From the NCBI GenBank assembly GCA_019058295.1, contig JAHPZI010000006.1:32001-96000 (forward strand): a stretch of 64,000 bases of DNA, in the 5' to 3' direction. The notes under the pieces were generated by a model, which was not told the origin of the DNA, did not search any database, and worked only from the letters and a program-made list of their open reading frames with translations. The translations under genes were made by a program, and so were the position numbers. Source of the stretch: Promethearchaeota archaeon. Its GTDB lineage: Archaea; Asgardarchaeota; Lokiarchaeia; Sigyniarchaeales; SOKP01. Of this stretch, positions 1 to 49,832 are shown piece after piece (within the stretch, counting starts at the first letter, position 1; the number at the start of each line of letters is the position of its first letter).

Positions 1-797
1 TGAGCTCCTTTGGAATATGAAGTAGTTCTTGTCTTTAAATAATGAATATAATCCTTTTTTGAAATTAAAATTACTAAAGAGATAATTCCTATAGAAAATA
101 TGATTAATGTCCATATCCATACATAAGACCAATAACTAACTTCGTAAATTGTTATATAATAGTCTGTATCTGCTTCAAGCTCTTTAATGCTAGTTTTCAA
201 GTAAGTTTCTGAATTTGATTCATCAACTTTCTCCTCTGTATCAACTAATTCCCACGAATCTTCATCTTCTTCATATATTGCTATTGAATATTCTATAAGG
301 GGGTCCAAACCATAGTTACTATCTTTTATGAATTCTAATTTTATTTTTTCAATTGAAGAGTTAGATTTTATAAGATAAATACATTTATATTGAGATCTTA
401 ACTCAAAATCTCCGTTTTTTGGTTCTTTTGGAGTTTTTGATAATCCAAAACTTTCCATACTTCGTTCTGATTTTATTTCGACAGAGATAGGCTTATTACT
501 ATAATCATTATTAATAATATCAAGAGATACTTCACGATTTTCGATTTTTTTATCATATTCAATATCAAGATGAATAAGCACATCTGTACTGATTTGTAAC
601 CTGTTATTATTCGAAAAAAGATAAGATTTTGATTCACCAGGATTTATTTCTCCTTTTTTTGAATATCCAGAAATATAAGTGTCTTTTCTTGCGAATCCAA
701 TAGAAATTAATAAACTAAATTCTAGAAGAATAATAGTTAAAAGTAAAAAACAAAATCCACGTTTTTTCCATTTATTAGTTATTGATATAAATACCAA
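1..797 (-). CDS. Partial (runs off left edge) single-pass membrane/surface protein, probable paralog of 879..1571
   Basis: Not in ORF track. Manual translation: TTG at 797 after in-frame TAG, open to window edge: signal-like RGFCFLLLTIILLEFSLLISIGFA, ectodomain with IAIYEEDEDSWELVDT, TM WIWTLIIFSIGIISLVILI, then cytoplasmic continuation. Confidence 0.8.
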   Translation of the reverse strand, partial: MVFISITNKWKKRGFCFLLLTIILLEFSLLISIGFARKDTYISGYSKKGEINPGESKSYLFSNNNRLQISTDVLIHLDIEYDKKIENREVSLDIINNDYSNKPISVEIKSERSMESFGLSKTPKEPKNGDFELRSQYKCIYLIKSNSSIEKIKLEFIKDSNYGLDPLIEYSIAIYEEDEDSWELVDTEEKVDESNSETYLKTSIKELEADTDYYITIYEVSYWSYVWIWTLIIFSIGIISLVILISKKDYIHYLKTRTTSYSKGA

Positions 798-878
798 CTA
801 TTATCAGTCCTTTTTTCAATAAATTTAATATAGAAAAAAAAAAATTTTAATATTAATTAAAAAAAATATCTCTGGTCT

Positions 879-1571
879 TTATTTTCTTCTTTTTATTATT
901 ATAACAGCAACCCCAATTATAATTGCAGCTCCGATTCCAACTCCAATCAAAATTATTAAAGTGTAATCTGTCTCAGGTACTAATATAGTCCAAGTTGAAA
1001 AATGATCAGTTTCACATTCTAAATTTCCATCTTCACTAGTCGTTTCAACAGGAACCCATTCTTCATCTTCTTCGTCATAATAAGCCCATGTACCACCTTT
1101 ATTCTGTTCGGTTTCTTGAATACTTAATTTTGCATCACAATCTTCCGTACATTCAATATCGGCAACAAAACCTTCTTGATACCTATATCGTACGCGATTA
1201 CGTGCTTCAATAATATTACCCTTTCTAAGTCCCTTTGAATTTTCTTCTTCTTTACAGTTCATAGTCATGTTAAAAGCTCTATCAGCCTCGACTTCAATTT
1301 CAAAATCTTTATCTCCGATTCTTTCACCATCACATTTTATATCCAAATTAGCGGGTTTATTTGCTTCGAATGTTACTTTTGTTTTTTCCTCGAAACGAAA
1401 CCTTATTTGATTTTCAGCCATTACATAATATTGAATCCTTTCACCATCATCTATATCAACTTTCTCATCGTCTTTAGCCGCTGCTACATCTTCAACATTA
1501 TATAACATAAACCCAGATATAAATGATGATACCAGAAATAACCCAAATAAAATTTTACTCATTTGTGTCAT
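879..1571 (-). CDS. Surface protein: signal peptide, ectodomain ending in CETDHFSTWTI, C-terminal TM anchor + KRRK
   Basis: N-terminal hydrophobic signal, acidic ectodomain, W..V.T...L.C.TDHFS.W motif, C-terminal TM with basic tail. Confidence 0.8.
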   Translation of the reverse strand: MTQMSKILFGLFLVSSFISGFMLYNVEDVAAAKDDEKVDIDDGERIQYYVMAENQIRFRFEEKTKVTFEANKPANLDIKCDGERIGDKDFEIEVEADRAFNMTMNCKEEENSKGLRKGNIIEARNRVRYRYQEGFVADIECTEDCDAKLSIQETEQNKGGTWAYYDEEDEEWVPVETTSEDGNLECETDHFSTWTILVPETDYTLIILIGVGIGAAIIIGVAVIIIKRRK

Positions 1572-1747
1572 TTTTTTTTATCACTCAAATTTGTTCTAAA
1601 AAAATAAAATTGATTTGGTTTAAAAAGGCTTAAGGAATAATTTTCCCCATATATAGGTTTAAATTTTCATTTGAGAGAATAATTAAATTAATATTTGAGG
1701 ATTAAATTTATAGTTTACATGTAAAGCGATTTATTTGTGAAAAAGTT

Positions 1748-3154
1748 ATGACCGAAAGATCTGAAGGAAATAAAGCTCTTTTTGAGCATAGAATATTATC
1801 TACAGGACAAGCAATAGCTTATGGTTTACCAATGGCCGGGTTGCAGGCAATATTGGGAATCCTGGTAAGTTTTACTCTGCTTTTTTATATCGAGATTATG
1901 GGGCAACCCCCAATTGTAGTAGGAGGCATTTTTTCGGCGGGATTAGTTATTTATGCGATTATGTGTATAATAGGTGGGGCAATAGCAGATAAAATCGGAA
2001 AAAAGAAAGTTATGTTAGTTTCTGGACCAATAATGGCAATCACCTTCATATTTATCTGGATACCCCCCATACCTGGTACAAATTTTGGTCAAATTTATAT
2101 TCCCTTAATAATATGGTTTATAATTTTTCTATTTTTGTTTCGAATAATGATTGCAGCTTTTCAATCTTCATTGTTAGCTCTCTTACCAGTGCTCAGCACT
2201 GAGGAGAAAAATAGAGTTAAAGTTAGCATGATTAATATGCTAATGACGATTTTAGGAATAGTGATTGGGATAGTGGGTCCCTTCATTCTAATGAGTAATG
2301 CAACTCAAAATCTTTCCAGAGAAGATCCTAATTTATATTATAAAGATTCTCCTTCCGGTCAAGCAATATATTCTGAAATTTTTTTCTTTGTTATATTGAT
2401 TGGAATTTTTTTCTTAGTACTTATGACTCTGATGATGCTCAAAATAAAAGAACCGAAGAAGAAAAATACAGAGCAAACAGGATTTAAAGAAATTTTAAGA
2501 GAGCTTTTTGAACCTTTAAAAGATAAAAACTATAGAAGATGGTTAATTACATTTTTTATATTTTGGGTACCCTTTATAGCTTTTGAATTTTTAGCCGTAA
2601 ATTTAGCTACATTTGTATTGGATTTGAGAGGGATAGAATTTTTAATTGCGATATTGATTGGGTTTATTTCAACGATCTTTTCATTTGTAATCTGGCAAAA
2701 AATTTCGCAGAAATTTTCGCTGAAGAAGACATTCACTATTTGTTTAATCCTTTCTAGTATATCGTTCTCTCTAATATTAATCTTAACAATACCTATGACA
2801 CATCAATTAATGTTTATATTTGGCCTCAGTATAATATGCCTCTGTTTTTGCTGCTTGGTGGGAACGATGACTTTTCCATCAGCAATAACGGGAGATCTTA
2901 TTGATTCTGCGGAATCAAAAGCTGGTGGAAAATCATTGAGCGGAACGTATTCAGGAGCATATATAATGATAGGATCGTTCGCCGCTGCTCTTTCTATTCT
3001 AATTATATCAATTATTTTGCAATTATTTGGTCCAGAATCACCGATGTCCTATGCGTTAATATTATCTGTAGTTGGCACTGGTTTAATTTTAATTGCTGTA
3101 ATCATCTTTCAGAAAGTTCCAATAGTAGGGACAGAGGAAAGACAGAAACAATAA
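1748..3154 (+). CDS. MFS transporter, GPH (MelB-like) family
   Basis: ~12 TM; GGAIADKIGKK MFS motif A; DLID...G.YSG loop motif. Confidence 0.85.
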   Translation: MTERSEGNKALFEHRILSTGQAIAYGLPMAGLQAILGILVSFTLLFYIEIMGQPPIVVGGIFSAGLVIYAIMCIIGGAIADKIGKKKVMLVSGPIMAITFIFIWIPPIPGTNFGQIYIPLIIWFIIFLFLFRIMIAAFQSSLLALLPVLSTEEKNRVKVSMINMLMTILGIVIGIVGPFILMSNATQNLSREDPNLYYKDSPSGQAIYSEIFFFVILIGIFFLVLMTLMMLKIKEPKKKNTEQTGFKEILRELFEPLKDKNYRRWLITFFIFWVPFIAFEFLAVNLATFVLDLRGIEFLIAILIGFISTIFSFVIWQKISQKFSLKKTFTICLILSSISFSLILILTIPMTHQLMFIFGLSIICLCFCCLVGTMTFPSAITGDLIDSAESKAGGKSLSGTYSGAYIMIGSFAAALSILIISIILQLFGPESPMSYALILSVVGTGLILIAVIIFQKVPIVGTEERQKQ

Positions 3155-3165
3155 AAATTATAAAT

Positions 3166-4584
3166 TTAAATTTTACCTTGTTTTTTTAGATGTTTAATAT
3201 ATTCTTTTTCCTTCTCATCGTGTATTTTTTTAAGTTCTGATTTTTGCTTGTCCCATTCTGGACCATCTAAAGGGAAAAATATCATAATAACTGCGCTAAA
3301 CAGAACAAATATCGCAGGTATTAATGTTAATGCTACCATTATTCCAATTTGTGCATTTATTGATTGTGTTTGTGCTTTTGCTTGAAAGCCGAAATACACA
3401 ATCACAAATAAAAACATCCAGTTTGCAATTGAGACTGCTGGTTTTTCAATTACAGCATTCATTCCACCATAACTTGTTTCTCTACGCTTACCAGTGCGAG
3501 TTTCGTCAAAATCTATAACATCAGCCATTATAGCTGGTTTTAAAAGAAGTAACGCTGAAAAACCAATTCCCAATAAAAGTAATGGAACTATTGCAGTTAA
3601 TAAAGACCAACCTAAGAAAAAGAAGCTGATAGAGATTACACCAGTAAATGCAAGGCCAAATATATATAATTTTTTTAATCCATATTTTCCAGACAATTTG
3701 GCGAAAATGGGAGTAAATATGAATGCCATTAAAAGAACAAGAAATAGAGGAACAATCGTTAAAAATCCACTCAAATTCAAAACATAAGAAACATAGTAAA
3801 AAATCCCTGTCGTCAAAATTGTTTGAGCTAAAAGGAAAGAAAAATTACTAATTTCATATTTTATAAATGGTCGATTTTTGAGTGTTTCTTTTATAGTATC
3901 TATAAATCCTAATGGTTCTTCAAGTTGAGTATAAAGATTTTCTTTTAAGAAAAAGCTACTTAGAAAAATAATAAAAGCACATATTATTCCAATGAAAATC
4001 ATTGCAATTAAGAACACTGGATTAACATTGGTAGATTTATCACCTGTTAGAAGAAACACTGGCATTATAAATGAGAAAATTAATGCTAGGCCCCCGAGAA
4101 CTACACCATAAGTCACGACCTCAGTTCTAGCTTTTTGTGTGATTGCCATTTCTGCAGGTAAGGCAAATCCAATAAGACCTATTATTGTAAATAACGTATC
4201 AAATAACATAAGTACAATTAAAAGATTTAAAAACAGCCCGAATTCATCATTCCTATCAACAAAAGGAAACCAACAAATAATAAATAAAATCCCAATAATC
4301 GGAGCTCCAAAGCGAACATAGGGAATTCTTCTTCCATATTTTTGAGATTTTGTACGATCTTGTATATAACCAAAAAGAGGATCATTTATCGTATTCCAAA
4401 TAGCAAAGATTAACCAAGCGATTCCAATTAATGCGGCACTCAATCCTAGTTTAACATTATAATAAAATGTTATACTAGAAAATGCTATTCCCGATAAAAC
4501 TCCATTACCTGCATTAAGAGCACCATAAGCTAATTTTGCTTTTCTTGGAATATATTCTTCAAAAGTTTCATTCTTAGAACTCAA
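3166..4584 (-). CDS. MFS transporter, GPH (MelB-like sugar:cation symporter) family
   Basis: WNTINDPLFGYIQDRT..KYGRRIPY and MADVIDFDETRTGKRRE signatures. Confidence 0.92.
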   Translation of the reverse strand: MSSKNETFEEYIPRKAKLAYGALNAGNGVLSGIAFSSITFYYNVKLGLSAALIGIAWLIFAIWNTINDPLFGYIQDRTKSQKYGRRIPYVRFGAPIIGILFIICWFPFVDRNDEFGLFLNLLIVLMLFDTLFTIIGLIGFALPAEMAITQKARTEVVTYGVVLGGLALIFSFIMPVFLLTGDKSTNVNPVFLIAMIFIGIICAFIIFLSSFFLKENLYTQLEEPLGFIDTIKETLKNRPFIKYEISNFSFLLAQTILTTGIFYYVSYVLNLSGFLTIVPLFLVLLMAFIFTPIFAKLSGKYGLKKLYIFGLAFTGVISISFFFLGWSLLTAIVPLLLLGIGFSALLLLKPAIMADVIDFDETRTGKRRETSYGGMNAVIEKPAVSIANWMFLFVIVYFGFQAKAQTQSINAQIGIMVALTLIPAIFVLFSAVIMIFFPLDGPEWDKQKSELKKIHDEKEKEYIKHLKKQGKI

Positions 4585-33887: not shown

Positions 33888-34418
33888 TTAAGTTAGCTCC
33901 AATTTATCCATCATCATCTGAGAGATTTTAATAAATATCTCCTCAACATTTTCACCAGTTTTAGAAGAGCATTCAATAATATCGTCGATATTATTTTTTC
34001 TTGCCAATTCAATAGCTAATTCAGTGGAAACCGTCCTCTTTAAATTAAGATCTAATTTTCCTCCTACCATTATCAATGGAATATCTATCTCTTTTTTATC
34101 AAAACCTTCTTTAAAAACATTTAACCATTCATAAATATTTAAGATGCTAGAGTGGCGTGTAATGTCGTACATAAAGATTCCCCCTGAAGCTCCCTTTGCA
34201 TAACTGGGTAAAAGAAATCTGAATTTATCTTCTCCAGCAAAATCCCATATTTGTAAAGTAATTTGTTTTTGAGCATGGTTTAATTTTTTCATATAAAAGT
34301 CAGCGCCAATTGTAACCTTATACTCGCTTTTAAATAGTCCTGTAAGATACCGATTGACCAAAGTAGTCTTCCCTACACCTCCGTTCCCGAAAACACATAC
34401 TTTATACTTTAATGACAT
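33888..34418 (-). CDS. Rab-like small GTPase
   Basis: GNGGVGKT, TIGADF, LQIWDFAGED.FR, GGKLD, CSSKTG; no C-terminal Cys. Confidence 0.95.
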   Translation of the reverse strand: MSLKYKVCVFGNGGVGKTTLVNRYLTGLFKSEYKVTIGADFYMKKLNHAQKQITLQIWDFAGEDKFRFLLPSYAKGASGGIFMYDITRHSSILNIYEWLNVFKEGFDKKEIDIPLIMVGGKLDLNLKRTVSTELAIELARKNNIDDIIECSSKTGENVEEIFIKISQMMMDKLELT

Positions 34419-34526: not shown

Positions 34527-35060
34527 TTAAATTAACCCTGCTATTTCTACCAATTTTCGAGCTATTTTATAGAAAATTAATTCTACATTTACGCCTGTTT
34601 TTGCTGAACATTCAATATAATCGTGAAGCTCGTATTCTTTTGCTAGGAGAACCGCATCACTGCTAATAACAGATCGTCTATCGTGGAGGTCTAACTTACC
34701 ACCAACCAGGGTAATAGGAATTTCATGATCACTGTCCTTAGTACCTTCATAAAAACCTTCAAGCCATTTAGGTAAGTTTCTTAAACTAGAAACCCTTGTT
34801 ATATCGAACATAAAAATACCACATGAGGCTCCTTTTACATAACTTGGTAAAAGGAAACGAAATCTGTCTTCACCAGCAAAATCCCAGATTTGGAGTGCTA
34901 CTTTTTTACCCTCTATTTCTAAAGTTTTAAGTAAAAAATCAACTCCTATCGTCATTGTTGTATTACTTTTAAAGATTCCCGTTAAGTATCTATTGACTAA
35001 ACATGTTTTTCCTACTCCACCATCACCGAAAATGCATACTTTAAACATTGCGTCTTGCAA
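34527..35060 (-). CDS. Rab-like small GTPase (tandem paralog)
   Basis: GDGGVGKT, TIGVDF, LQIWDFAGEDRFR, GGKLD, CSAKTG. Confidence 0.95.
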   Translation of the reverse strand: MQDAMFKVCIFGDGGVGKTCLVNRYLTGIFKSNTTMTIGVDFLLKTLEIEGKKVALQIWDFAGEDRFRFLLPSYVKGASCGIFMFDITRVSSLRNLPKWLEGFYEGTKDSDHEIPITLVGGKLDLHDRRSVISSDAVLLAKEYELHDYIECSAKTGVNVELIFYKIARKLVEIAGLI

Positions 35061-38634: not shown

Positions 38635-39930
38635 TTAAAGATCTAATTTATGCTTTTTCTTAAATAAGTCTTTTAATTCGCCTAGAATAGAGGATCTTGA
38701 ATTAGGTGTTGGAGGCTCAATATTAGATTCTTCGAGGTGAATAGGCTCTTCAGCTGGTATTTCAGCTGGTACTTCAGCTGGTACTTCAGCTGATACTTCA
38801 GCTGGTACTTCAGCTGGTACTTCAGCTGGTACTTCAGCTGGTACTTCAAGATACTCCCTTCCTTCAATTGCTTCAATTCTCTGTTCTATTGCTGATAATT
38901 GGGATGAGATAGATTCAGAAAGTTTTATAATAGCATTCATTAGGCCTTCCACAATTTCTCCTAATCCATCAATTCTTGTAATAGCAGGGTCGCTTACACT
39001 ATAATTTGATTTCATAACATCTTTAATATATTTGGAAAATTTTGGTTCATTAGATATTAAGGAGTATATCGAAGTTAAATAGGTTTCATAATCTAATTTA
39101 AGCTCTATACGGTCAAATAATTCTTTCAGATTATCTTTTAAAAATTCAACATTCAACTCTATTGTTGGTTCCCCTTTTAAATCCGGGTCGTATTTATGTA
39201 AGAAGATTAGCAAGTAAGGATTTTCTTCTAAATTACCAAGTATTTCAAGTATTTTTTCAAAATACTCAAATGAAGCTGCAAATCTCTCAGAATCTTGTAC
39301 ATCAATTACATATAATAGTAAATCAATCTGAAGGAAATATTGCTCAGGATATTTCAGATATTTACTTCTATATTCTTTCTGCCCTCCCAGATCCCAGACA
39401 AATAAATCGAGCCCTGAACCTTCTATTACTTTTCTTTTGACCCCCTTTGTGGGTTTTAAACCAACCAGATCATCTATTCCTAACTTACCACCAAATTTAG
39501 ATATTATTGCGGTTTTACCGGCATTGTCTAGACCTACAACGACAACCTTTTGTTGTGTTTTATCTCCACTAATCGCATCGTCTTTGATGCTTGAGATAAT
39601 AGAGCTAATAGTAATGGCTTTTTCCAATTTTTTTTCAAATTGAGGATATTTATTGTAGAGTGCTTTAATTTTTTCATCAAATTTTTCTCGTGTCTTTTTA
39701 CTTTTAAATTTAGAAGCTTCGACGATATTGGAGATTTCTAAAAATTCTTCTAAATAATTCGCCTCATCTTTGTCAATAAAATTAAATATTTCAAGGGGTA
39801 AATTCTTAATATCATCAATAGATTCTATTTTTATGGTTTCCTCTCCGCCTGAATATTCTAATTTTTTAACGAATTTAGGTTCCAAGAATTTTGCCAGTGC
39901 ATCAATTATATTTGAGAAACCTGATTCCAT
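38635..39930 (-). CDS. Multidomain Arf/Rag-like GTPase with N-terminal helical domain, coiled coil, EVPA repeats and C-terminal amphipathic helix
   Basis: GLDNAGKT, LKPTKG, WDLGGQKEYR, HKYD, TSI. Confidence 0.9.
   Translation of the reverse strand: MESGFSNIIDALAKFLEPKFVKKLEYSGGEETIKIESIDDIKNLPLEIFNFIDKDEANYLEEFLEISNIVEASKFKSKKTREKFDEKIKALYNKYPQFEKKLEKAITISSIISSIKDDAISGDKTQQKVVVVGLDNAGKTAIISKFGGKLGIDDLVGLKPTKGVKRKVIEGSGLDLFVWDLGGQKEYRSKYLKYPEQYFLQIDLLLYVIDVQDSERFAASFEYFEKILEILGNLEENPYLLIFLHKYDPDLKGEPTIELNVEFLKDNLKELFDRIELKLDYETYLTSIYSLISNEPKFSKYIKDVMKSNYSVSDPAITRIDGLGEIVEGLMNAIIKLSESISSQLSAIEQRIEAIEGREYLEVPAEVPAEVPAEVPAEVSAEVPAEVPAEIPAEEPIHLEESNIEPPTPNSRSSILGELKDLFKKKHKLDL
38749..38848. repeat. 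Coding tandem repeat, 8 x 12 bp (ttcagctggtac) = (EVPA)8
   Basis: Eight units, two with single substitutions (EVSA, EIPA). Confidence 0.97.
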
Positions 39931-40122: not shown

Positions 40123-41028
40123 ATGCCTTCTGAATCCGATGATTTTAATGAAGATAAGGAAAACTGCTGTGATTCTCCTAAAATTAGCGAAGAGGATGGT
40201 TTTTATGTATGTTTAAACTGTGGATCTGTATTCTCTAGAATTCTCGATTCATCACCCAGAAGGGCATTTACAGCGGAAGAGATTCAAAAAAGAAAAAGTA
40301 CCGAACGTGTTTATAGCCCTATCGGCCCTCGTACAATTATTCGCGGTAGTCGTGATGCTCGAGGTACTTTGTTAAGCCCAAAATTTAAATCAAAATTTAA
40401 TAGATTAGCTAAAATCCATAGATCCTTAACAACCAGTTATGAAAGAAATTTATGGATAGCTTTACCAAATTTACAGCGTTTACAAAAAAGATTAGGTATT
40501 CCTGATATAGTTGCTGAGGATGCACTTCGAATATATACCCAAACCGTTAAAAAAAAGTTAACGATGGGACGAAGTATTGATACATTATTATCTGCATCTA
40601 TATTTTGTGCCTTAAGAATTCATGGTATTCCCAGAACTATAGAGGAAATAACTAAGATTGCTCAGATACCAAAGAAGAAAGTTATAAAAAGTTATAGATT
40701 AATTTTGATGGAGATTTTACCTCATTTAAATTTAAAAGTACAACATTTCACCTCAGACCGTTATGTAGATAAGTTTAATGATGAATTGGGATTGTCAATG
40801 CAAGTTAGAAATATTGCAGTTAAATTAATTAAAAGTGCGAAAGAAAATGGTTTTAACACTGCTGGTAAAGATCCAAAAGGAATTGCTGCTGCCGCTATCT
40901 ATCTCGGTTCTAAGATAGCAAATGAAAATCGCACTCAGAAAGAAATATCAAAACTCGCGATGGTTACAGAAGTAACACTTCGCATGAGAGTTAAGGACCT
41001 CCAAAAATACGCTAATATTATTCTATAA
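40123..41028 (+). CDS. tfb: Transcription initiation factor TFB (TFIIB family)
   Basis: CCD...VCLNCG Zn ribbon, RAFT.EE, ERNL, GRSI, AGKDPKGIAAAAIY, RTQKEI, VTEVTLR. Confidence 0.93.
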   Translation: MPSESDDFNEDKENCCDSPKISEEDGFYVCLNCGSVFSRILDSSPRRAFTAEEIQKRKSTERVYSPIGPRTIIRGSRDARGTLLSPKFKSKFNRLAKIHRSLTTSYERNLWIALPNLQRLQKRLGIPDIVAEDALRIYTQTVKKKLTMGRSIDTLLSASIFCALRIHGIPRTIEEITKIAQIPKKKVIKSYRLILMEILPHLNLKVQHFTSDRYVDKFNDELGLSMQVRNIAVKLIKSAKENGFNTAGKDPKGIAAAAIYLGSKIANENRTQKEISKLAMVTEVTLRMRVKDLQKYANIIL

Positions 41029-44000
41029 TATTGATTAATTCTTTTTCTTCCTCAAATAAAGGCAAAATATTTAATAGGTTTTCAATGTTAGAATTATATT
41101 GTTTCATATCGTAGATTTTTACATCAATAATGAATTTCATCAAAGTAAAATAGAACGTATCTTTAAGAATTTTTTCGCTCAATCCCATATTTTCAAAAAA
41201 TTTATTAAATTCAATTTTTATTTGCTTAGGAGATTTAATTTTTAATAAAGATAAACCATACAAAAAAAGTAGCATTGCACTGGTCTCATAATTCTTTCTT
41301 TTCAAAAAATTATTAGATAACTCTAAATATTTATTTGCTGCTTCCTTGAATTTTTTGTTTTTTACTAATAATAAAACCTCATCATAATATCGTTTTTTCA
41401 TTGCTTTTCTTTTAGTAAAAAAATCTTTAATATCCCTTTTTATATCACCTACTTTTTGTTGAAGACTACTATTAATACCGTCTAACTCAATTTTTATATG
41501 TTTAGGCTTTTTTATGAGAGTTGTGTCTTCAATTTTATCCTTTATTATTTCCTCTCCTAAAAGGGTTCTTAGAAAAGTGATTTCTGGTTCAAAAAGAATT
41601 AATTTATCAATGAGATGATTGATGCTTATTTGGATTAAATCTTGTAGATCTTCTTGATATGCAATGAAGATATATTTCATGAATTGAATTTCTGGTAACG
41701 TTTCTTCTATAATATTAAAATTTAAAACCTCTTTTGTATGATCTACAAAAATCGATTTCGCAAATTGAACATTCGTATCATAAATCTGAATTAAGGTTCC
41801 TAAAATTAAACTTACGGCTGCATATTTAAGAAGTTTTTTATCAGCGAGCTTTTGAAATGCGCTTAAATAAATTAAGGATGCTTCTTGTAAATTATTATTA
41901 ATTAATTCTTTGATAGCTTTATCCCAATAATCTCGTTTCATCATTTTTCTTTTAGCAATATCTTGGGTTTTTTTTTCAATGTTTTTTGCTATTTGATTAA
42001 TTTCTCTTCTAAGCTTTGCTATTTCCTCAGGAGGTAATTTAGTTTTTTCAGTTTTCTCTTCTTTTTCAATTTTTTTACCCAAATAATCATAAAGTACCAA
42101 AATTTCTTCTTCAAACATCGGTAAAAATTCTAAATAAGACATAGCTTTTTTTAATTTTGGTTCATCTTCGATTTTTTTCAGATCTATAACATATTCTATA
42201 AGAGTGACTGGGAATGTCTCGAATAACAAATTTCCTACTCTGGAAAATTCTTCTTTTATATCTTTCATTAAATTTATTAATTCATCTATTCTATCATCTT
42301 TTATTAACAATAGAGACGCTACAGCTAAGGATACTCCAGCTAAATTATATTTTTTAATTTTATTCAATTTAATTACACTCTCCTTATAAGAAATAATAGC
42401 GTTATCAAATTCTTGATTTTTTATGAATTCCAAAGCATTCTTAAAATAAGTTCGTTTCATACCACTTCTTTGTTTCATTTCATTTTCTTGATCCTGCTTT
42501 GCATCCCTTCCTTTTTTCATTATAATCGAAAGCTTTTCTTTTAATATTTCGGTCTTAACTGATTCTTTAGCTTTCTTGGTTTTTATTGCTGCTTTGCTAG
42601 TCTCTACTTTAGCTAATTTCTTGTGGATTTCATTTTTAAATGTTTTATTTTCAATTTTATCTGAAAATGTTTGGGCAGATGAAAAATCTTCTAAAGTAAT
42701 ATAGATTTCAGCAATTTTCTTATAGATTTTATCAAAATTAACTTTAAATTTTTCAACGTCTAAATAAGCTGCTGCAATTATATGAATTTTTTTTCTTAAT
42801 TCATTTGATTTTTCGATTCCTGATAAATTATTTTCAATTTCTACAATTTTTAGGGCTTCCTTTTTGATTTGTTTTATAAATAATTTATTTATTTCTCTGG
42901 ATTTTTCATACAATTGTTGACTTCTAAAGATTTTATTTGATTTTTCAAAAATTTTTTCTTTATTAGTGAAATCCTTTTCTGATGGCAATTTTTTCAATTT
43001 TTCAATGAAGAGTGTATAGATTCTTATTAAGTAATTTTTCTTAGTTTCATCTTTTAAATCTGAGTAGAACTCAAAGAAATTATCAAATAAATTACCTTCA
43101 ATTAAAATGTCCAAAGATTTTATCAAAATCTGATTTCCTGCTTCTTCTTTACCTATATCTTTGAGAAAAATAGAATGATTTTTTATTATTTGAGCAGCTT
43201 TAAGAAAATCATCTTTCTTAATATATTCATTAGACTCTTCTATTTTTTGAGAATTCATCTCAACAATAATATTTTCTTCAGCATCATAAAAATCTTGTAT
43301 AATATCAACCCCTTGTTGGACATATTCATTTATTTCTTTCTTTTTTAGTTTTTTATTCTTCTCTTCAATTTTTACACTAAATTCAGTTAATTCCTTCTTT
43401 AATTCCAAAGAATTTAATTTATTGATTAAAATAGTAGCCATCCCAAAATTCAATTCTTCTAAGAGTAATTTAATTAATTTTTCCAATTTGTTATCAATAT
43501 CTACTTTTTCTAACTCATAAGTCTCCCAAATATTTTCAATCTCATCGTGTACCTCTTTAGCAGCATATAAATCCTTTTCGTTGACTTTTTGTTCTAGTAA
43601 CTTTATTAATATCTCAATTACCTTTTCTTCAAATATTTTTAAGTCTTCATATAGCCCTTCTCGTTGATATTCATTTATACTGTAATATAATTGATCCCTT
43701 GCAGATTCTAGCTCTCCATTTGAAGATAAATATTCAGCAGCGTCAACAATTTTTTCAGAAACTTCACTTAAAATACCACTAGTTTCTTCGTGAGGTAACC
43801 TTTCAAGAATACTAAATGCGTTTTCAACTTTACAGGCTGAGATAAAAGAATTTATAGATAATTTAAAACAATCATTAACTAATTTTTTATCTTCTAGCTC
43901 AATTGATGCCCATTGAGCAGCGCTTTCATATTGTGAAGCGGCTAATTCGTAATCTCCATTATTAAATAGTTTATTTCCTTCTGTAATCATCGCTCTGTGA

Positions 44001-44743
44001 TATAATTTCTTAAAATCTATCGCTTTTCTTTTATCAAATTTATTAAAAATTTCTGAAGCTTCTAAAAAAAGGTTGATCTTTGAAAAAGTAAAGGCAGCTT
44101 GTTCATAATGAATCATGAATTCGCTATTATTGTAAATTTCTGAAATTATTGCTGCCTTTTTCATAGCCCGAGCAGCATAATAATAATTTTGTTCTTTAAA
44201 ATATTCATTCGCTAATTCTATAAATATAGGAAATCTCAACCAAGCATTTTCAATATTTAATGGAGTTTCTGCAGCAATCATCGCCAATGATAGGCATTCA
44301 AGCGCTTGATGAAATTTTTTTGGTGAAAGATTTATAAATACTTCAAGATCAGGGTAATTTAACCACATGCTTTCCAAAACATCGTTAGTAATAAGAGGAA
44401 GGAGACCATTTTTATCATAAAAAATAACTACTATAGGTATATTCCTTTTAACTGAATTTATAATAGGTAGACTCATTTCAAAAAACTCAAATTCCTCAAT
44501 TTTAAGAGGATTAATAAGAAATAGAATTCCATCAACAGTAGGAATAACTTCATCGTAATCTGCAGAAATAATATCCGTTAAAACGTCCACTTCCAAATCG
44601 CAAATATCTTCTAACGCATTAATTTCTTTATAAAATTCATAATAAGCATGCTTCTCCTCACCTACATCCTGAAATGATCTCACTATATATTCATATGTCG
44701 ATTCTGGTTCCCCCATTATTAAAACTTTAAATACATATCGCAT
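41018..44743 (-). CDS. 1241-aa protein: degenerate Rab-fold domain + TPR/alpha-solenoid + three ~175-aa C-terminal repeats
   Basis: YVFKVLIMGE, VDGILFLIN, IPIVVIF without a P-loop; TPR-like A..YE.AA helices; repeated KR..MKR.Y...LP.FEEE units. Confidence 0.7.
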   Translation of the reverse strand: MRYVFKVLIMGEPESTYEYIVRSFQDVGEEKHAYYEFYKEINALEDICDLEVDVLTDIISADYDEVIPTVDGILFLINPLKIEEFEFFEMSLPIINSVKRNIPIVVIFYDKNGLLPLITNDVLESMWLNYPDLEVFINLSPKKFHQALECLSLAMIAAETPLNIENAWLRFPIFIELANEYFKEQNYYYAARAMKKAAIISEIYNNSEFMIHYEQAAFTFSKINLFLEASEIFNKFDKRKAIDFKKLYHRAMITEGNKLFNNGDYELAASQYESAAQWASIELEDKKLVNDCFKLSINSFISACKVENAFSILERLPHEETSGILSEVSEKIVDAAEYLSSNGELESARDQLYYSINEYQREGLYEDLKIFEEKVIEILIKLLEQKVNEKDLYAAKEVHDEIENIWETYELEKVDIDNKLEKLIKLLLEELNFGMATILINKLNSLELKKELTEFSVKIEEKNKKLKKKEINEYVQQGVDIIQDFYDAEENIIVEMNSQKIEESNEYIKKDDFLKAAQIIKNHSIFLKDIGKEEAGNQILIKSLDILIEGNLFDNFFEFYSDLKDETKKNYLIRIYTLFIEKLKKLPSEKDFTNKEKIFEKSNKIFRSQQLYEKSREINKLFIKQIKKEALKIVEIENNLSGIEKSNELRKKIHIIAAAYLDVEKFKVNFDKIYKKIAEIYITLEDFSSAQTFSDKIENKTFKNEIHKKLAKVETSKAAIKTKKAKESVKTEILKEKLSIIMKKGRDAKQDQENEMKQRSGMKRTYFKNALEFIKNQEFDNAIISYKESVIKLNKIKKYNLAGVSLAVASLLLIKDDRIDELINLMKDIKEEFSRVGNLLFETFPVTLIEYVIDLKKIEDEPKLKKAMSYLEFLPMFEEEILVLYDYLGKKIEKEEKTEKTKLPPEEIAKLRREINQIAKNIEKKTQDIAKRKMMKRDYWDKAIKELINNNLQEASLIYLSAFQKLADKKLLKYAAVSLILGTLIQIYDTNVQFAKSIFVDHTKEVLNFNIIEETLPEIQFMKYIFIAYQEDLQDLIQISINHLIDKLILFEPEITFLRTLLGEEIIKDKIEDTTLIKKPKHIKIELDGINSSLQQKVGDIKRDIKDFFTKRKAMKKRYYDEVLLLVKNKKFKEAANKYLELSNNFLKRKNYETSAMLLFLYGLSLLKIKSPKQIKIEFNKFFENMGLSEKILKDTFYFTLMKFIIDVKIYDMKQYNSNIENLLNILPLFEEEKELINIIE

Positions 44744-44783
44744 TTTATCGTCGTATAAAATCTTTAAAATTATGAGTTTTATG

Positions 44784-44801
44784 AAATCATTTAAATGATT
44801 T
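44784..44801. promoter_or_regulatory. Perfect 18-bp palindrome AAATCATTTAAATGATTT in divergent intergenic region (candidate operator)
   Basis: Self-reverse-complementary; flanked by further inverted arms ttttatga / tcataaaa (44777-44814). Confidence 0.45.
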
Positions 44802-44893
44802 TCTCTTCATAAAATAAATTAATTCATTTAGCTTAATAAATTATTTAAATTAATTGATTGAAAAAGTAAAATCTAACAAACAATAAAATTTTA

Positions 44894-45556
44894 ATGATAA
44901 CATTGCTCGTCGAAAGGAATTATCGAATTGTAGAAGCGAAAATGATCGCCCAGATGGAAGAGGCCCTAGAATATGGGAAAAAATTGATTGATTCAGAATT
45001 GGATGCTGGGATTTTTGATTTTATTGTGAAACCTATAGTTAAAACCTTCTATAAATATTGGAGCGACAATGATGCCCGCGAAGGCACCTTACAACAAATA
45101 AAAGTAACTTTAGATTGTGCAAAGTTAATCCTAAATAATGGTATAGAAAATGAAGAATTTGAAAAAACGATTGAAGAAAATTTTCCAATTTATCTTAAAG
45201 GTGATCAAACCTATCGACAATGTAAAATGAAACATAAAAGTTTTAATAAATTAAAAGAAATTACAAGAGACTGTTTTATATCCCAAGTCAATGAAGCCGT
45301 ATTGTTTTTGAATGTGAAAGAAGATATTACGACTTATGATGATATAGTTAGGATTGTTTTTAAGACAAAAGAAAATGCTCTAAAATCTTTAATGCAACAA
45401 CTAGATTTTAATGAGGCTGGAATCAATGTCATTGAAAAAAATCCTTCAATTTTAAAGATTCCAACTGGCAAAAACATTCTTTTAAAATGCCTAAGAAAAG
45501 GTTTTGAGCACACAAAAACATTATTAATTGAGAGACTTGACAATATTTTCAATTAA
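44894..45556 (+). CDS. Hypothetical all-helical protein
   Basis: 220-aa ORF filling the gap; no recognisable motif. Confidence 0.75.
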   Translation: MITLLVERNYRIVEAKMIAQMEEALEYGKKLIDSELDAGIFDFIVKPIVKTFYKYWSDNDAREGTLQQIKVTLDCAKLILNNGIENEEFEKTIEENFPIYLKGDQTYRQCKMKHKSFNKLKEITRDCFISQVNEAVLFLNVKEDITTYDDIVRIVFKTKENALKSLMQQLDFNEAGINVIEKNPSILKIPTGKNILLKCLRKGFEHTKTLLIERLDNIFN

Positions 45557-45583
45557 AAAACAACTTTTTGCGTTGTTATATAT

Positions 45584-46672
45584 ATGGAAGAAAATAGTGA
45601 TGATATTGCCTTAGTAAAAAACACTAAAAATGAGCATAATAATCCTTTAAGAATTATTTTTTTAAATTTGTTTATTAGCGTATTTATAATAATGTGTTAC
45701 TTCTATTTAGCAGAATTTTTCGGTTCAATATCTACGATTTTTGTAGAAAATTCTGAATTGATAATATCATTCGGGATCACTTTGTTATTATTCACGTTTT
45801 TTTCCACATTAGCAGGTAAATATCATGGCTTTATTGCGGGTTTTATAGGAGAATTACTTTACCAATTGGCCTATTACGATGTGATTTATATTCATTGGTG
45901 TTTGATAGTTTCAATATGGGGATTATTAAATGGTATATGGAAATATAAACCATTAAGATATCATAATTTAAAGAATTTAGGCTATTCAGTAGTAATATTA
46001 TTTCTTTCTTCTCTCTTTACGATGTTTCTTATAATAATATTTCAAAAAATTTTGTATTTTAGGCATTTTCAATCAACTATAATAAATTACGGATTAAAAT
46101 TTCTTATTAATGCAGTTATAGTAATTGTAATGGTTCCACTCCTTCTTTTTCTCTATGATAAAACTCTTGCTACAGATGAACAACACCTCTATTATTTGTT
46201 ATTAACTCATCATACTGTCTCTCAGAGTGATCACACATTTGTTTTAAAATTTGGCAGAACTTATATTTATTTTTGTTCGAGATGTTCAGGGGTAATACTT
46301 GGAGGATTGATTGCATTCTTTTTTACACATTTATTTGAAAGGATATATCATACCGAAATAAATCCCATAACTGCTGTGTTTTTATGTGTTATTTTGCCAA
46401 TACCAGGATTAATTGATTGGGGAACTCAGAGGTTAACATTAAGAAAAAGTACGACTGAATCAAGATTGTTTACCGGATTCGTTATTGGCAGTGCAATACA
46501 TTTGATGTCTTTTACGAGAGAATATTATTTCATAACGATTTTTTTGGTTATTTTCTATTTCAGCATTGTAGGTATATTAATATTTTTGGGGGAACGCCGC
46601 GGTTATGGCCTCGAATATTTAGAAATAGAGGAAGAAGAAAAATTCGATGAACAGGATAATCTAACAGAATAA
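45584..46672 (+). CDS. Membrane protein: ECF S-component-like N-terminus fused to DUF2085-like domain
   Basis: GKYHGFIAGFIGELL (S-component-like); HH...HT...FCSRCSG, P.LIDWGTQ, R.FTGF (DUF2085-like). Confidence 0.7.
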   Translation: MEENSDDIALVKNTKNEHNNPLRIIFLNLFISVFIIMCYFYLAEFFGSISTIFVENSELIISFGITLLLFTFFSTLAGKYHGFIAGFIGELLYQLAYYDVIYIHWCLIVSIWGLLNGIWKYKPLRYHNLKNLGYSVVILFLSSLFTMFLIIIFQKILYFRHFQSTIINYGLKFLINAVIVIVMVPLLLFLYDKTLATDEQHLYYLLLTHHTVSQSDHTFVLKFGRTYIYFCSRCSGVILGGLIAFFFTHLFERIYHTEINPITAVFLCVILPIPGLIDWGTQRLTLRKSTTESRLFTGFVIGSAIHLMSFTREYYFITIFLVIFYFSIVGILIFLGERRGYGLEYLEIEEEEKFDEQDNLTE

Positions 46673-48437: not shown

Positions 48438-49832
48438 TTATTTCGATTTATCAATTAACCCCCTCAAATTTTCTTTCTTTTTTAGAAATTCACGTATTGA
48501 ATTGAGGTCTTTGTTTATCATTCTCGCAGATCGTATATTAAATGGATTTCCTTCAAGCTTCAAGAAGAATTGTCGTAAATTTTTCAATTTCCTAATAATT
48601 CTAGGTATAGTAATGAAATCATTATGCCTTAAGTCCAATTCTTCGAGTGATTTTAAGTTTCCAATAGAATCTGGGAGTGAAGTCAATTGATTATTTCTTA
48701 AATCTAATATTCTAAGAGATTTAAGATTTCCAATAGAATTCGGAAGTGAAGTCAATTGATTATTAACTAAAAATATTTGTTGGAGCAATTTAAGGTTGCC
48801 AAATGAGTTTGGCAGTGTTTCTATCTGATTATTTTCAAGAAATAACTGTTTAAGAGATTTAAGATTTCCAAATGATTTTGGAAGGCTTTTTAATTCATTA
48901 TTTTCAGCATATAATCGTTCCAAATTTGATAAATTAAGGACTGGCTTAGGAAATTCCTTAAAGTTATTTTTACTTATATCTAATGATTGTAATGATTTTA
49001 ATTTTCCAAACGTTTTAGGGAGATCTTTTAAATGATTATCTCTTAATCTTAATACTTTTAATTTAGTTAAATTCTCTATAGATTCAGGAATAGATTTTAA
49101 TAGATTATGGCTAAAACCTAATACAAGTAGCGAATTTAACCTGAATAAAGGTTCAAGAATCTTATCTGGTAAAACTTTTAAAGAATTGCCTGCTAAAGAG
49201 AGAATTCGAAGATTTTTTAAACTGCATATATTATCGGGAAGAGTCGATATCCTATTATAATCTAAATATAATCCTTCAAGCGATTTTAAATTACAAACAG
49301 CCTTAGGGATTTGTGTAAATTTATTTTTGCTTAAATATAATTCTTTCAGTGAATTAAGGTTACTAAAAGATTCTGGAAGCGATTTAAATTGATTATTTCG
49401 TAAGATTAATTGTTGAAGCATGCTTAAATTTGCAAAAGATTCTGGTAGAGTTGTTAATTTATTTGTATCTAATTCTAATTCTTCTAGTAATTCAAAGTCT
49501 CCGAAAGTTTTTGGGAGAGCAGTTAAAGAGTTCCATCTTAAATTTAATTTTTCTAGCAATTGTAATTTACCAAATGATTCTGGGAGAATAGTCAATGAAT
49601 TATAACCTAAGTACAATTCTCTGATAGTATCTAGGTTCAAAATTTGTTTTGGAAGTTCTTTTAGACCACAACGTTCAAGCCATAAACTAACAACATTGTC
49701 ATCATCAATTTTAACTCCAAAAGAAGGTATTCCACGTTCATCAAGACAAGGAATTTTTTTACCGATTATCTTATTCAAATCGTTTAATGCTTCTGCTTGT
49801 TTGGGTTTAACGTTGTATTCTTCACTTTTCAT
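48438..49832 (-). CDS. Leucine-rich repeat protein (~15 x 23-aa repeats)
   Basis: L..L.L..N.L..LP.S.G.L repeats; LEGNP cap. Confidence 0.97.
   Translation of the reverse strand: MKSEEYNVKPKQAEALNDLNKIIGKKIPCLDERGIPSFGVKIDDDNVVSLWLERCGLKELPKQILNLDTIRELYLGYNSLTILPESFGKLQLLEKLNLRWNSLTALPKTFGDFELLEELELDTNKLTTLPESFANLSMLQQLILRNNQFKSLPESFSNLNSLKELYLSKNKFTQIPKAVCNLKSLEGLYLDYNRISTLPDNICSLKNLRILSLAGNSLKVLPDKILEPLFRLNSLLVLGFSHNLLKSIPESIENLTKLKVLRLRDNHLKDLPKTFGKLKSLQSLDISKNNFKEFPKPVLNLSNLERLYAENNELKSLPKSFGNLKSLKQLFLENNQIETLPNSFGNLKLLQQIFLVNNQLTSLPNSIGNLKSLRILDLRNNQLTSLPDSIGNLKSLEELDLRHNDFITIPRIIRKLKNLRQFFLKLEGNPFNIRSARMINKDLNSIREFLKKKENLRGLIDKSK

Follow-up and report, generated by a model that had tools for sequence, protein, structure and literature searches.

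A predicted Ras-like pseudoGTPase domain fused to TPR-like helical stacks and tandem C-terminal modules in a conserved protein family of Lokiarchaeia

CENP-M, the pG1 and pG2 domains of p190RhoGAP, the N-terminal domain of AAGAB and the dynein light intermediate chain (LIC) are pseudoGTPases that serve as interaction modules (PMC4080450, PMC5593906, PMC12490416, PMC4359372). Large expansions of working small GTPases are a known feature of Asgard archaea, and we found neither a published account of a conserved dead one nor a paper that combines Asgard archaea with a pseudoGTPase. Here we describe a candidate, encoded at positions 41018-44743 on the reverse strand of a 64,000-nucleotide stretch (hereafter, the window) of contig JAHPZI010000006.1 (positions 32,001 to 96,000) from the Promethearchaeota archaeon assembly GCA_019058295.1. 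The 1241-residue product is predicted to begin with a Ras/Rab fold that lacks every nucleotide-binding motif, followed by two tetratricopeptide repeat (TPR)-like helical stacks and three mutually homologous helical modules. We lean towards reading it as a scaffold that works without nucleotide.

The gene is one uninterrupted reading frame of 1241 codons (ATG at 44743, stop at 41018-41020) in a window of about 29% G+C, and its product has a mass of 146 kDa and an isoelectric point (pI) of 5.6. More than 236 homologues were found at 43-93% identity. When the whole protein was compared with Pfam and NCBIfam, the sole match was a sub-threshold one to DUF357, and the orthologues carry the labels "hypothetical" or "tetratricopeptide repeat protein"; as far as sequence comparison goes, the family is an orphan. 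Charge is distributed unevenly along the protein, with a pI of 4.2-4.8 in the G domain and first stack and of 7.3-9.5 in the second stack and the modules. A model of residues 1-1200, built from an 80-sequence alignment (A4), gave a mean predicted local distance difference test (pLDDT) score of 84.7 and a predicted template modelling score (pTM) of 0.43, so that the local structure is confident and the global arrangement is not.

The N-terminal domain (residues 1-160; 44264..44743, reverse strand) is acidic (pI 4.2) and was modelled by AlphaFold2 with a mean pLDDT of 93 and a pTM of 0.89. The elements of the model run b1 (2-11), a1 (13-24), b2 (34-43), b3 (46-55), a2 (63-69), b4 (72-77), a3 (82-96), b5 (104-108), a4 (119-129), b6 (134-137) and a5 (145-157), which is the topology of a Ras-like G domain, b2-b3 hairpin included. 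Foldseek returned at least 500 matches to this domain in the PDB at E <= 0.001, and all 50 of the matches listed were Ras-superfamily small GTPases. Among those listed were H-Ras and K-Ras (E 6e-8 to 1e-7, template modelling (TM) score 0.72-0.74), along with Rab33, Rab8 and Rab7. The initial annotation, made from the DNA letters, had read residues 1-160 as Ras/Rab-like and had named the lack of a Ras-like fold as the result that would speak against it; the predicted fold is Ras-like, and the four peptide strings on which that annotation drew are present at residues 3-12, 35-54, 62-78 and 101-108.

The motifs that make such a fold a switch were lost, as the same annotation had claimed for GxxxxGKS/T, DxxG and NKxD. 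A regular-expression search of residues 1-170 found no GxxxxGK[ST], GK[ST] or [NT]KxD. The only DxxG in that interval is D110-K-N-G113, which lies past strand 5 at the G4 position rather than at G3, and none was found after strand 3. Strand 5 runs into Y-D-K-N-G instead of N-K-x-D, and the guanine-specificity motifs NKxD and SAK are both missing at their structural positions. Together these losses leave the predicted domain without G1, G3, G4 and G5. In two profile alignments, one with a Ras protein of the window and one with 30 Ras proteins of the genome, a gap of five residues opened opposite the Ras "GVGKT" string. The gap falls exactly there, and the phosphate-binding loop (P-loop) is shortened, by about five residues, as well as mutated.

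The same was seen throughout the family. In an alignment of residues 1-165 from 117 relatives (A1), the P-loop motif GxxxxGK[ST] was present in none of the 117 N-domains, and its lysine and serine/threonine were gone from every sequence. A string matching [NT]KxD occurred somewhere in the N-domain of three of the 117. Members with only 23-31% identity had lost the motifs too, and the lineage of the order that diverges most also has a degenerate N-domain ("MRYFFKILVLDLLPE..."). This spread suggests that the loss predates the radiation of the order. Nine residues were invariant in the 117-sequence alignment (C48, E51, D71, G72, P79, P103, W127, E134 and N138).

The likeness to GTPases is one of predicted structure, and sequence searches did not recover it. 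The Pfam and NCBIfam models for Ras, Arf, Roc and small_GTP gave no match to the N-domain, and a profile search of PDB sequences with the G domain found nothing below E 0.07. Against 1.84 billion representative proteins the G-domain profile had 48 matches, with no true GTPase among them; the longer ones were members of this family and the remainder look like its fragments, two short ones that were inspected lying on 1-2-kb contigs. The genome (3.2 Mb, 79% complete) contains at least 45 matches to PF00071 at E <= 1e-10, two of which lie in the window at 33888-34418 and 34527-35060, and the 1241-residue reading frame is not among these 45. Alignment by hhalign of the G-domain profile with the 30-sequence Ras alignment of the genome was co-linear over 100 columns with b1-b5 in register, at a probability of 3%. 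Across the three comparisons made in this way (the window Ras protein, the Arf/Rag-like neighbour described below and the 30-sequence Ras set) probabilities were 1-3%, co-linear and not significant.

Past residue 160 every element of the model is a helix, and the only strands assigned by DSSP are the six of the G domain. The first helical-hairpin stack (residues 161-445; 43409..44263, reverse strand), delimited by DSSP, the entropy profile and a sub-threshold TPR_2 match, has its modelled hairpins at 164-442 and thus starts directly at 164. The TPR_2 match (E 0.0011) scored 19.3 bits in this protein against a cut-off of 27 bits, and the model was matched at about 251-277 in 31 of 61 relatives, with a best E of 1.3e-6. 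A single helix of 64 residues (446-509; 43217..43408, reverse strand; DSSP H446-509, pLDDT 80-92) separates this stack from a second one (residues 510-716; 42596..43216, reverse strand), which is basic (pI 9.2) and has hairpins at 513-716. What had been annotated as one alpha-solenoid of about 1000 residues is therefore helical throughout, as proposed, but segmented into two stacks, the 64-residue helix and three linked modules.

The modules span about 728-890, 905-1062 and 1080-1241, each being about 165 residues long, and are set off by linkers at 715-728, 893-901 and 1065-1080 in which pLDDT fell below 50. Their pairwise identities of 24-29% (BLAST E 1e-10 to 5e-17), with module A at 25-29% to B and C, indicate that they are mutually homologous, and a hidden Markov model (HMM) of the unit, built from all module copies, matched each of them. 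Module A with its linker (residues 728-904; 42032..42562, reverse strand) comprises a long basic helix and about nine helices (unit HMM at 740-917, 181 bits). Module B with its linker occupies residues 905-1079 (41507..42031, reverse strand; 913-1087, 145 bits), and module C, which is basic (pI 9.5; alignment A2), takes up residues 1080-1241 (41021..41506, reverse strand; 1092-1238, 153 bits). The number of modules varied among 149 relatives, being three in 115, two in 33 and four in one. Relatives of about 1070-1100 residues are without the middle module B, the deletion falling at about 897-1083 in 26 short homologues. The four-module relative, P0005, has 1410 residues, showing that the array expands as well as contracts. 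In the most divergent family of the order, one orthologue (locus L058 of genome G279, 256-3654, reverse strand) has 1132 residues, with the dead G domain and helical stacks retained. The final 330 or so residues are unlike the three C-terminal modules and match no Pfam family; they might represent another type of C-terminal domain, or a fusion. An assignment of this part as a carboxylate-amine ligase was dropped for want of a Pfam match.

The helical part resembles TPR proteins in a general way. With the full model, the matches from Foldseek were long TPR scaffolds (SKI3/TTC37, subunits of intraflagellar transport complex A (IFT-A), Ctr9, Naa15 and Tom70), with E values of 7e-8 to 2e-4 and alignments that span 600-1300 columns. 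The TM scores against these scaffolds were 0.07-0.13, so the likeness is that of generic repeats and the overall shapes differ. The VIA and Atlas listings for the 1200-residue model were taken up by GTPases, which means that the helical modules were barely probed by those searches. No sequence similarity of the helical part to solved structures was detected; profile searches of PDB sequences with module C and with the central region gave nothing below E 0.07. The modules have no Pfam family, and the SNAP HMM matched none of 120 module copies or 61 central regions at E <= 0.1. By language-model features module C was nearest to archaeal SNAP-like TPR proteins (PF14938 clusters, mostly from Promethearchaeota and Thorarchaeota), with a score of 0.90 and 177 of 256 features shared, which is a lead only. 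The one SNAP row in the structure search was gamma-SNAP, in a non-rigid alignment with a root-mean-square deviation of 22 A. Of the "TPR/SNAP-like" repeats first proposed, the TPR-like part is supported by the Foldseek and TPR_2 evidence, and the SNAP part has behind it the feature match and the non-rigid gamma-SNAP alignment, with no SNAP match in Pfam.

To what extent is the protein maintained? The 1241-residue sequence served as query against 400 genomes of the phylum. Copies were found in 125/134, 1/1, 14/14 and 3/4 genomes of the four families of the order, making 143/153 with the source genome excluded, and a profile search raised the last family from 3/4 to 4/4. No copy was found in seven genomes from other families of the class or in the other Asgard classes sampled; in five genomes of those classes the full-length profile had no convincing match either. 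The gene is mostly single copy, and many of the cases with two matches were the two halves of the two-module form. Closed-genome orthologues are DSAG12_01390 (QEE15564.1) in Promethearchaeum syntrophicum and NEF87_003838 (UYP47553.1) in Lokiarchaeum ossiferum, and a further one is present in Ca. Harpocratesius repetitus. We found no mention of DSAG12_01390, NEF87_003838, A0A5B9D8W9, QEE15564 or UYP47553 in the literature. No RNA dataset was listed that covers window positions 40900-45700, and the region was present only in sediment and soil DNA metagenomes.

The ratio of nonsynonymous to synonymous substitution rates (dN/dS) against four same-genus orthologues was 0.20-0.34 for the whole gene and 0.13-0.25 for the G domain. 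The latter is the lowest of all parts, so the "dead" domain is the most constrained part of the protein. Conservation peaked over the G domain and first stack, with entropy minima at residues 61-80 and at the junction 161-180; residues 61-80 form the a2/b4 region, which in a GTPase would be the switch II side. The near-universal presence in the order, the usual single copy, the low dN/dS and the two entropy minima argue that the gene is functional.

Synteny was compared at 14 loci from two families of the order, ten from the window's own family and four from a sister family with 25-29% identity. The sole neighbours kept at all 14 were a divergently transcribed gene for a 220-residue protein (P0168) and, directly downstream of it, a gene for a DUF2085 membrane protein. 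In the window an AT-rich divergent intergenic region of 150 bp (44744..44893, sequence read directly) separates the gene from that for P0168 (44894..45556, forward strand), and the multi-pass DUF2085 protein (Pfam E 7e-15) is encoded 28 bp further on (45584..46672, forward strand). In 14/14 loci the gene for P0168 was no more than about 2-3.2 kb away. NCBI locus tags are adjacent in several metagenome-assembled genomes, which provides an independent view of the pairing with the 220-residue gene. P0168 is itself an orphan, with no match in Pfam, NCBIfam, the PDB (profile search, none below E 0.07) or an Atlas feature search. It has 546 homologues, is class-wide in Lokiarchaeia, is often tandemly duplicated and occurs in one or two copies in the relatives. 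Together P0168 and the DUF2085 protein look like a conserved two-gene module. Over the 14 loci the number of C-terminal modules (two or three) did not correlate with the number of P0168 copies (one or two). Complex prediction with residues 1-716 and P0168 returned "no answer" (score 0.00, mark 0.32), which is no evidence either way.

The surroundings differ between the two families. In the sister family two or three extra genes stand between the gene and the P0168/DUF2085 pair, and these always include a family-specific reading frame of about 140 residues and a double winged-helix protein. The product of the former, of about 140-160 residues, is encoded directly divergent to the gene (L013:12005-12424, L014:7548-8048, L015:12017-12487 and L025:11238-11660). 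It is confined to the sister family, that of P. syntrophicum and L. ossiferum, has no Pfam family and has no copy in the window; it is followed by the double winged-helix, HVO_0163-like regulator. In the window's own family a TFIIB gene flanks the gene convergently in 10/10 loci (here at 40123-41028, forward strand, the 3' ends overlapping by 11 nt), and it is not among the neighbours in the sister family. The window also encodes Ras-, Arf- and Rag-like GTPases, a Roadblock protein and leucine-rich-repeat (LRR) proteins. Among the last is a 464-residue protein at 48438-49832 on the reverse strand (LRR_8, E 2e-53). The alpha/beta-solenoid class, which includes LRR proteins, has been reported to be enriched in Asgard archaea (bioRxiv 10.64898/2026.10.28.762692), and the architecture of the 1241-residue protein is absent from that 2026 Asgard solenoid preprint.

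Taken together, the anatomy and conservation incline us to regard the protein as a non-enzymatic, nucleotide-independent pseudoGTPase-TPR scaffold with a class-I-type pseudoGTPase at its N-terminus. In the predicted G domain the full Ras topology is kept, but the P-loop is truncated and G3, G4 and G5 are gone, and a domain with these losses could not work as a GTP/GDP switch. Conservation of segment 161-180 suggests that the domain may be held rigidly on the first TPR-like stack, and that of residues 61-80, the stretch conserved best of all, that the two would present a fixed protein-binding surface around what answers to switch II and strand 4. The G domain and stack would then be, in effect, a permanently "locked" GTPase-effector-like unit. 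The basic C-terminal half, with its two to four helical modules on flexible linkers, has the anatomy expected of repeated, independently mobile docking sites, which might engage an acidic surface or several copies of one partner. That the gene keeps its place beside the P0168 and DUF2085 genes suggests that the partner system may be membrane-associated. A scaffold, tether or proto-coat component had been proposed for this gene from the outset; the scaffold agrees, as far as such inference goes, with the anatomy, conservation and purifying selection. The coat or tether link is a lead that found no support, there being no beta-propeller and the structural matches to coat or IFT proteins being generic TPR likeness with a TM score of about 0.1.

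Several points weigh against this reading. Some pseudoGTPases still bind nucleotide, and the loss of binding here is deduced from motifs and a model. The conserved D110-x-x-G113 string remains, albeit at the G4 position. The scaffold role is argued from anatomy, and the overall arrangement of the domains is uncertain (pTM 0.43). P0168 is also present in Lokiarchaeial orders in which no copy of the 1241-residue protein was found and so does not depend on it.

The dead G domain might alternatively pair with a live small GTPase, as inactive septins and pseudo-subunits do, making the protein a regulator or decoy of a Ras-, Arf- or Rag-like GTPase and its TPR part an effector or a platform for a GTPase-activating protein (GAP) or a guanine nucleotide exchange factor (GEF). 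In Myxococcus, large TPR proteins act as effectors of MglA-type GTPases. The candidate partner is a 431-residue Arf/Rag-like GTPase encoded two genes away (38635..39930, reverse strand; Pfam Arf 3e-22, Gtr1_RagA 1e-19). It has an N-terminal extension of about 120 residues, intact G1 and G3 motifs (GLDNAGKT and WDLGGQ), HKYD where NKxD would stand, and (E/A)VPA repeats in a C-terminal linker; one relative (L016) has three paralogues in tandem. The presence of this GTPase, in up to three copies, near the gene in 9/10 loci of the window's own family is in keeping with such a pairing, as are the at least 45 Ras-family matches in the genome and the fact that conservation on the dead domain is greatest at the surface that answers to switch II and strand 4, a usual GTPase interface. 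However, the GTPase is missing from 4/4 loci of the sister family, to which P. syntrophicum and L. ossiferum belong, and the Pfam and NCBIfam scans found no GAP or GEF domain. The initial annotation had also named the neighbouring GTPases and Roadblocks as proteins to be modelled with this one. The Ras genes and the Roadblock gene of the window are not conserved neighbours at the 14 loci, and the Arf/Rag-like GTPase is syntenic in the window's own family only. This more specific version of the scaffold reading, the main rival, we consider unlikely.

The protein could also be the core of a membrane-associated machine specific to the Promethearchaeales, in which a permanently "on" Rab-like module, with its own TPR effector arm and two to four flexible docking modules, would organise the DUF2085 protein, P0168 and live small GTPases at the membrane or on cell protrusions. 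This we hold to be distinctly improbable; if true, it would be a counterpart in archaea, whether ancestral or of independent origin, to the eukaryotic logic of GTPase plus solenoid found in coats, tethers and IFT. We give still less credence to a switch that depends on nucleotide or another ligand through non-canonical residues, or to a domain re-purposed for another small molecule. The very strong conservation of the N-domain, whose invariant residues could mark a ligand pocket rather than an interface, and the conserved DxxG-like string past strand 5 would accommodate it, but the shortened P-loop, the loss of its lysine and serine/threonine in 117/117 sequences and the missing NKxD and SAK do not, and a pI of 4.2 is unfavourable for phosphate binding in a domain that has no P-loop. 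Finally, an NTPase of the STAND or ROCO type that serves in signalling or defence and has its TPR part as sensor is hardly credible. The resemblance of a P-loop-class fold followed by a long TPR array to NB-ARC-TPR and Roc-COR-repeat proteins is superficial, and the matches of the N-domain are to Ras-like small GTPases instead of the AAA+-like modules of STAND proteins. There is no Walker A motif, the whole protein has no COR, NACHT or NB-ARC match in Pfam or NCBIfam, and its hairpins begin at residue 164. Defence genes are patchy, whereas this gene occurs in nearly all genomes of the order, mostly as one copy, and is syntenic.

If the scaffold reading is right, a Rab-fold domain that is no longer a switch is hard-wired to a TPR arm in a family that is near-universal in the order of the cultured Lokiarchaeia P. 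syntrophicum and L. ossiferum. The family thus offers a testable entry into how GTPase-derived modules are put to structural use, something otherwise recorded chiefly in eukaryotes (CENP-M, dynein LIC and AAGAB), with locus tags available in organisms that can be grown. By itself the finding establishes no homology with eukaryotic coats or tethers.

How does the protein compare with the systems it most resembles? The fusion of a pseudoGTPase, a TPR arm and two to four modules of about 165 residues is unmatched by anything our searches returned. Compared with the Rab and Ras GTPases (Rab23, Rab32, Rab3C, Sec4 and H/K-Ras), its N-domain has an identity of only 9-19%, and the protein is without G1, G3, G4 and G5, has a shortened P-loop and carries about 1080 residues of helical repeat. 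Judged by sequence, it falls outside the functional definition of a Ras-superfamily GTPase at every motif. It shares the local geometry of helical-hairpin repeats with SKI3/TTC37, the IFT-A TPR subunits, Ctr9, Naa15 and Tom70, but these have no N-terminal Ras-fold domain and no three tandem modules of about 165 residues. Unlike the protocoatomer proteins of coats, nucleoporins and IFT, it has no N-terminal beta-propeller before the alpha-solenoid. A further parallel is with the class I pseudoGTPases CENP-M, p190RhoGAP, AAGAB and LIC, which likewise combine a Ras-like fold and degenerate G motifs with a presumed rigid protein-binding role in a larger assembly. No sequence relationship to these four was detected and none of them was among the 50 structural matches listed; the class I label is a prediction from fold and motifs. 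CENP-M binds a HEAT-type solenoid partner in trans, whereas the archaeal protein has its solenoid fused in cis.

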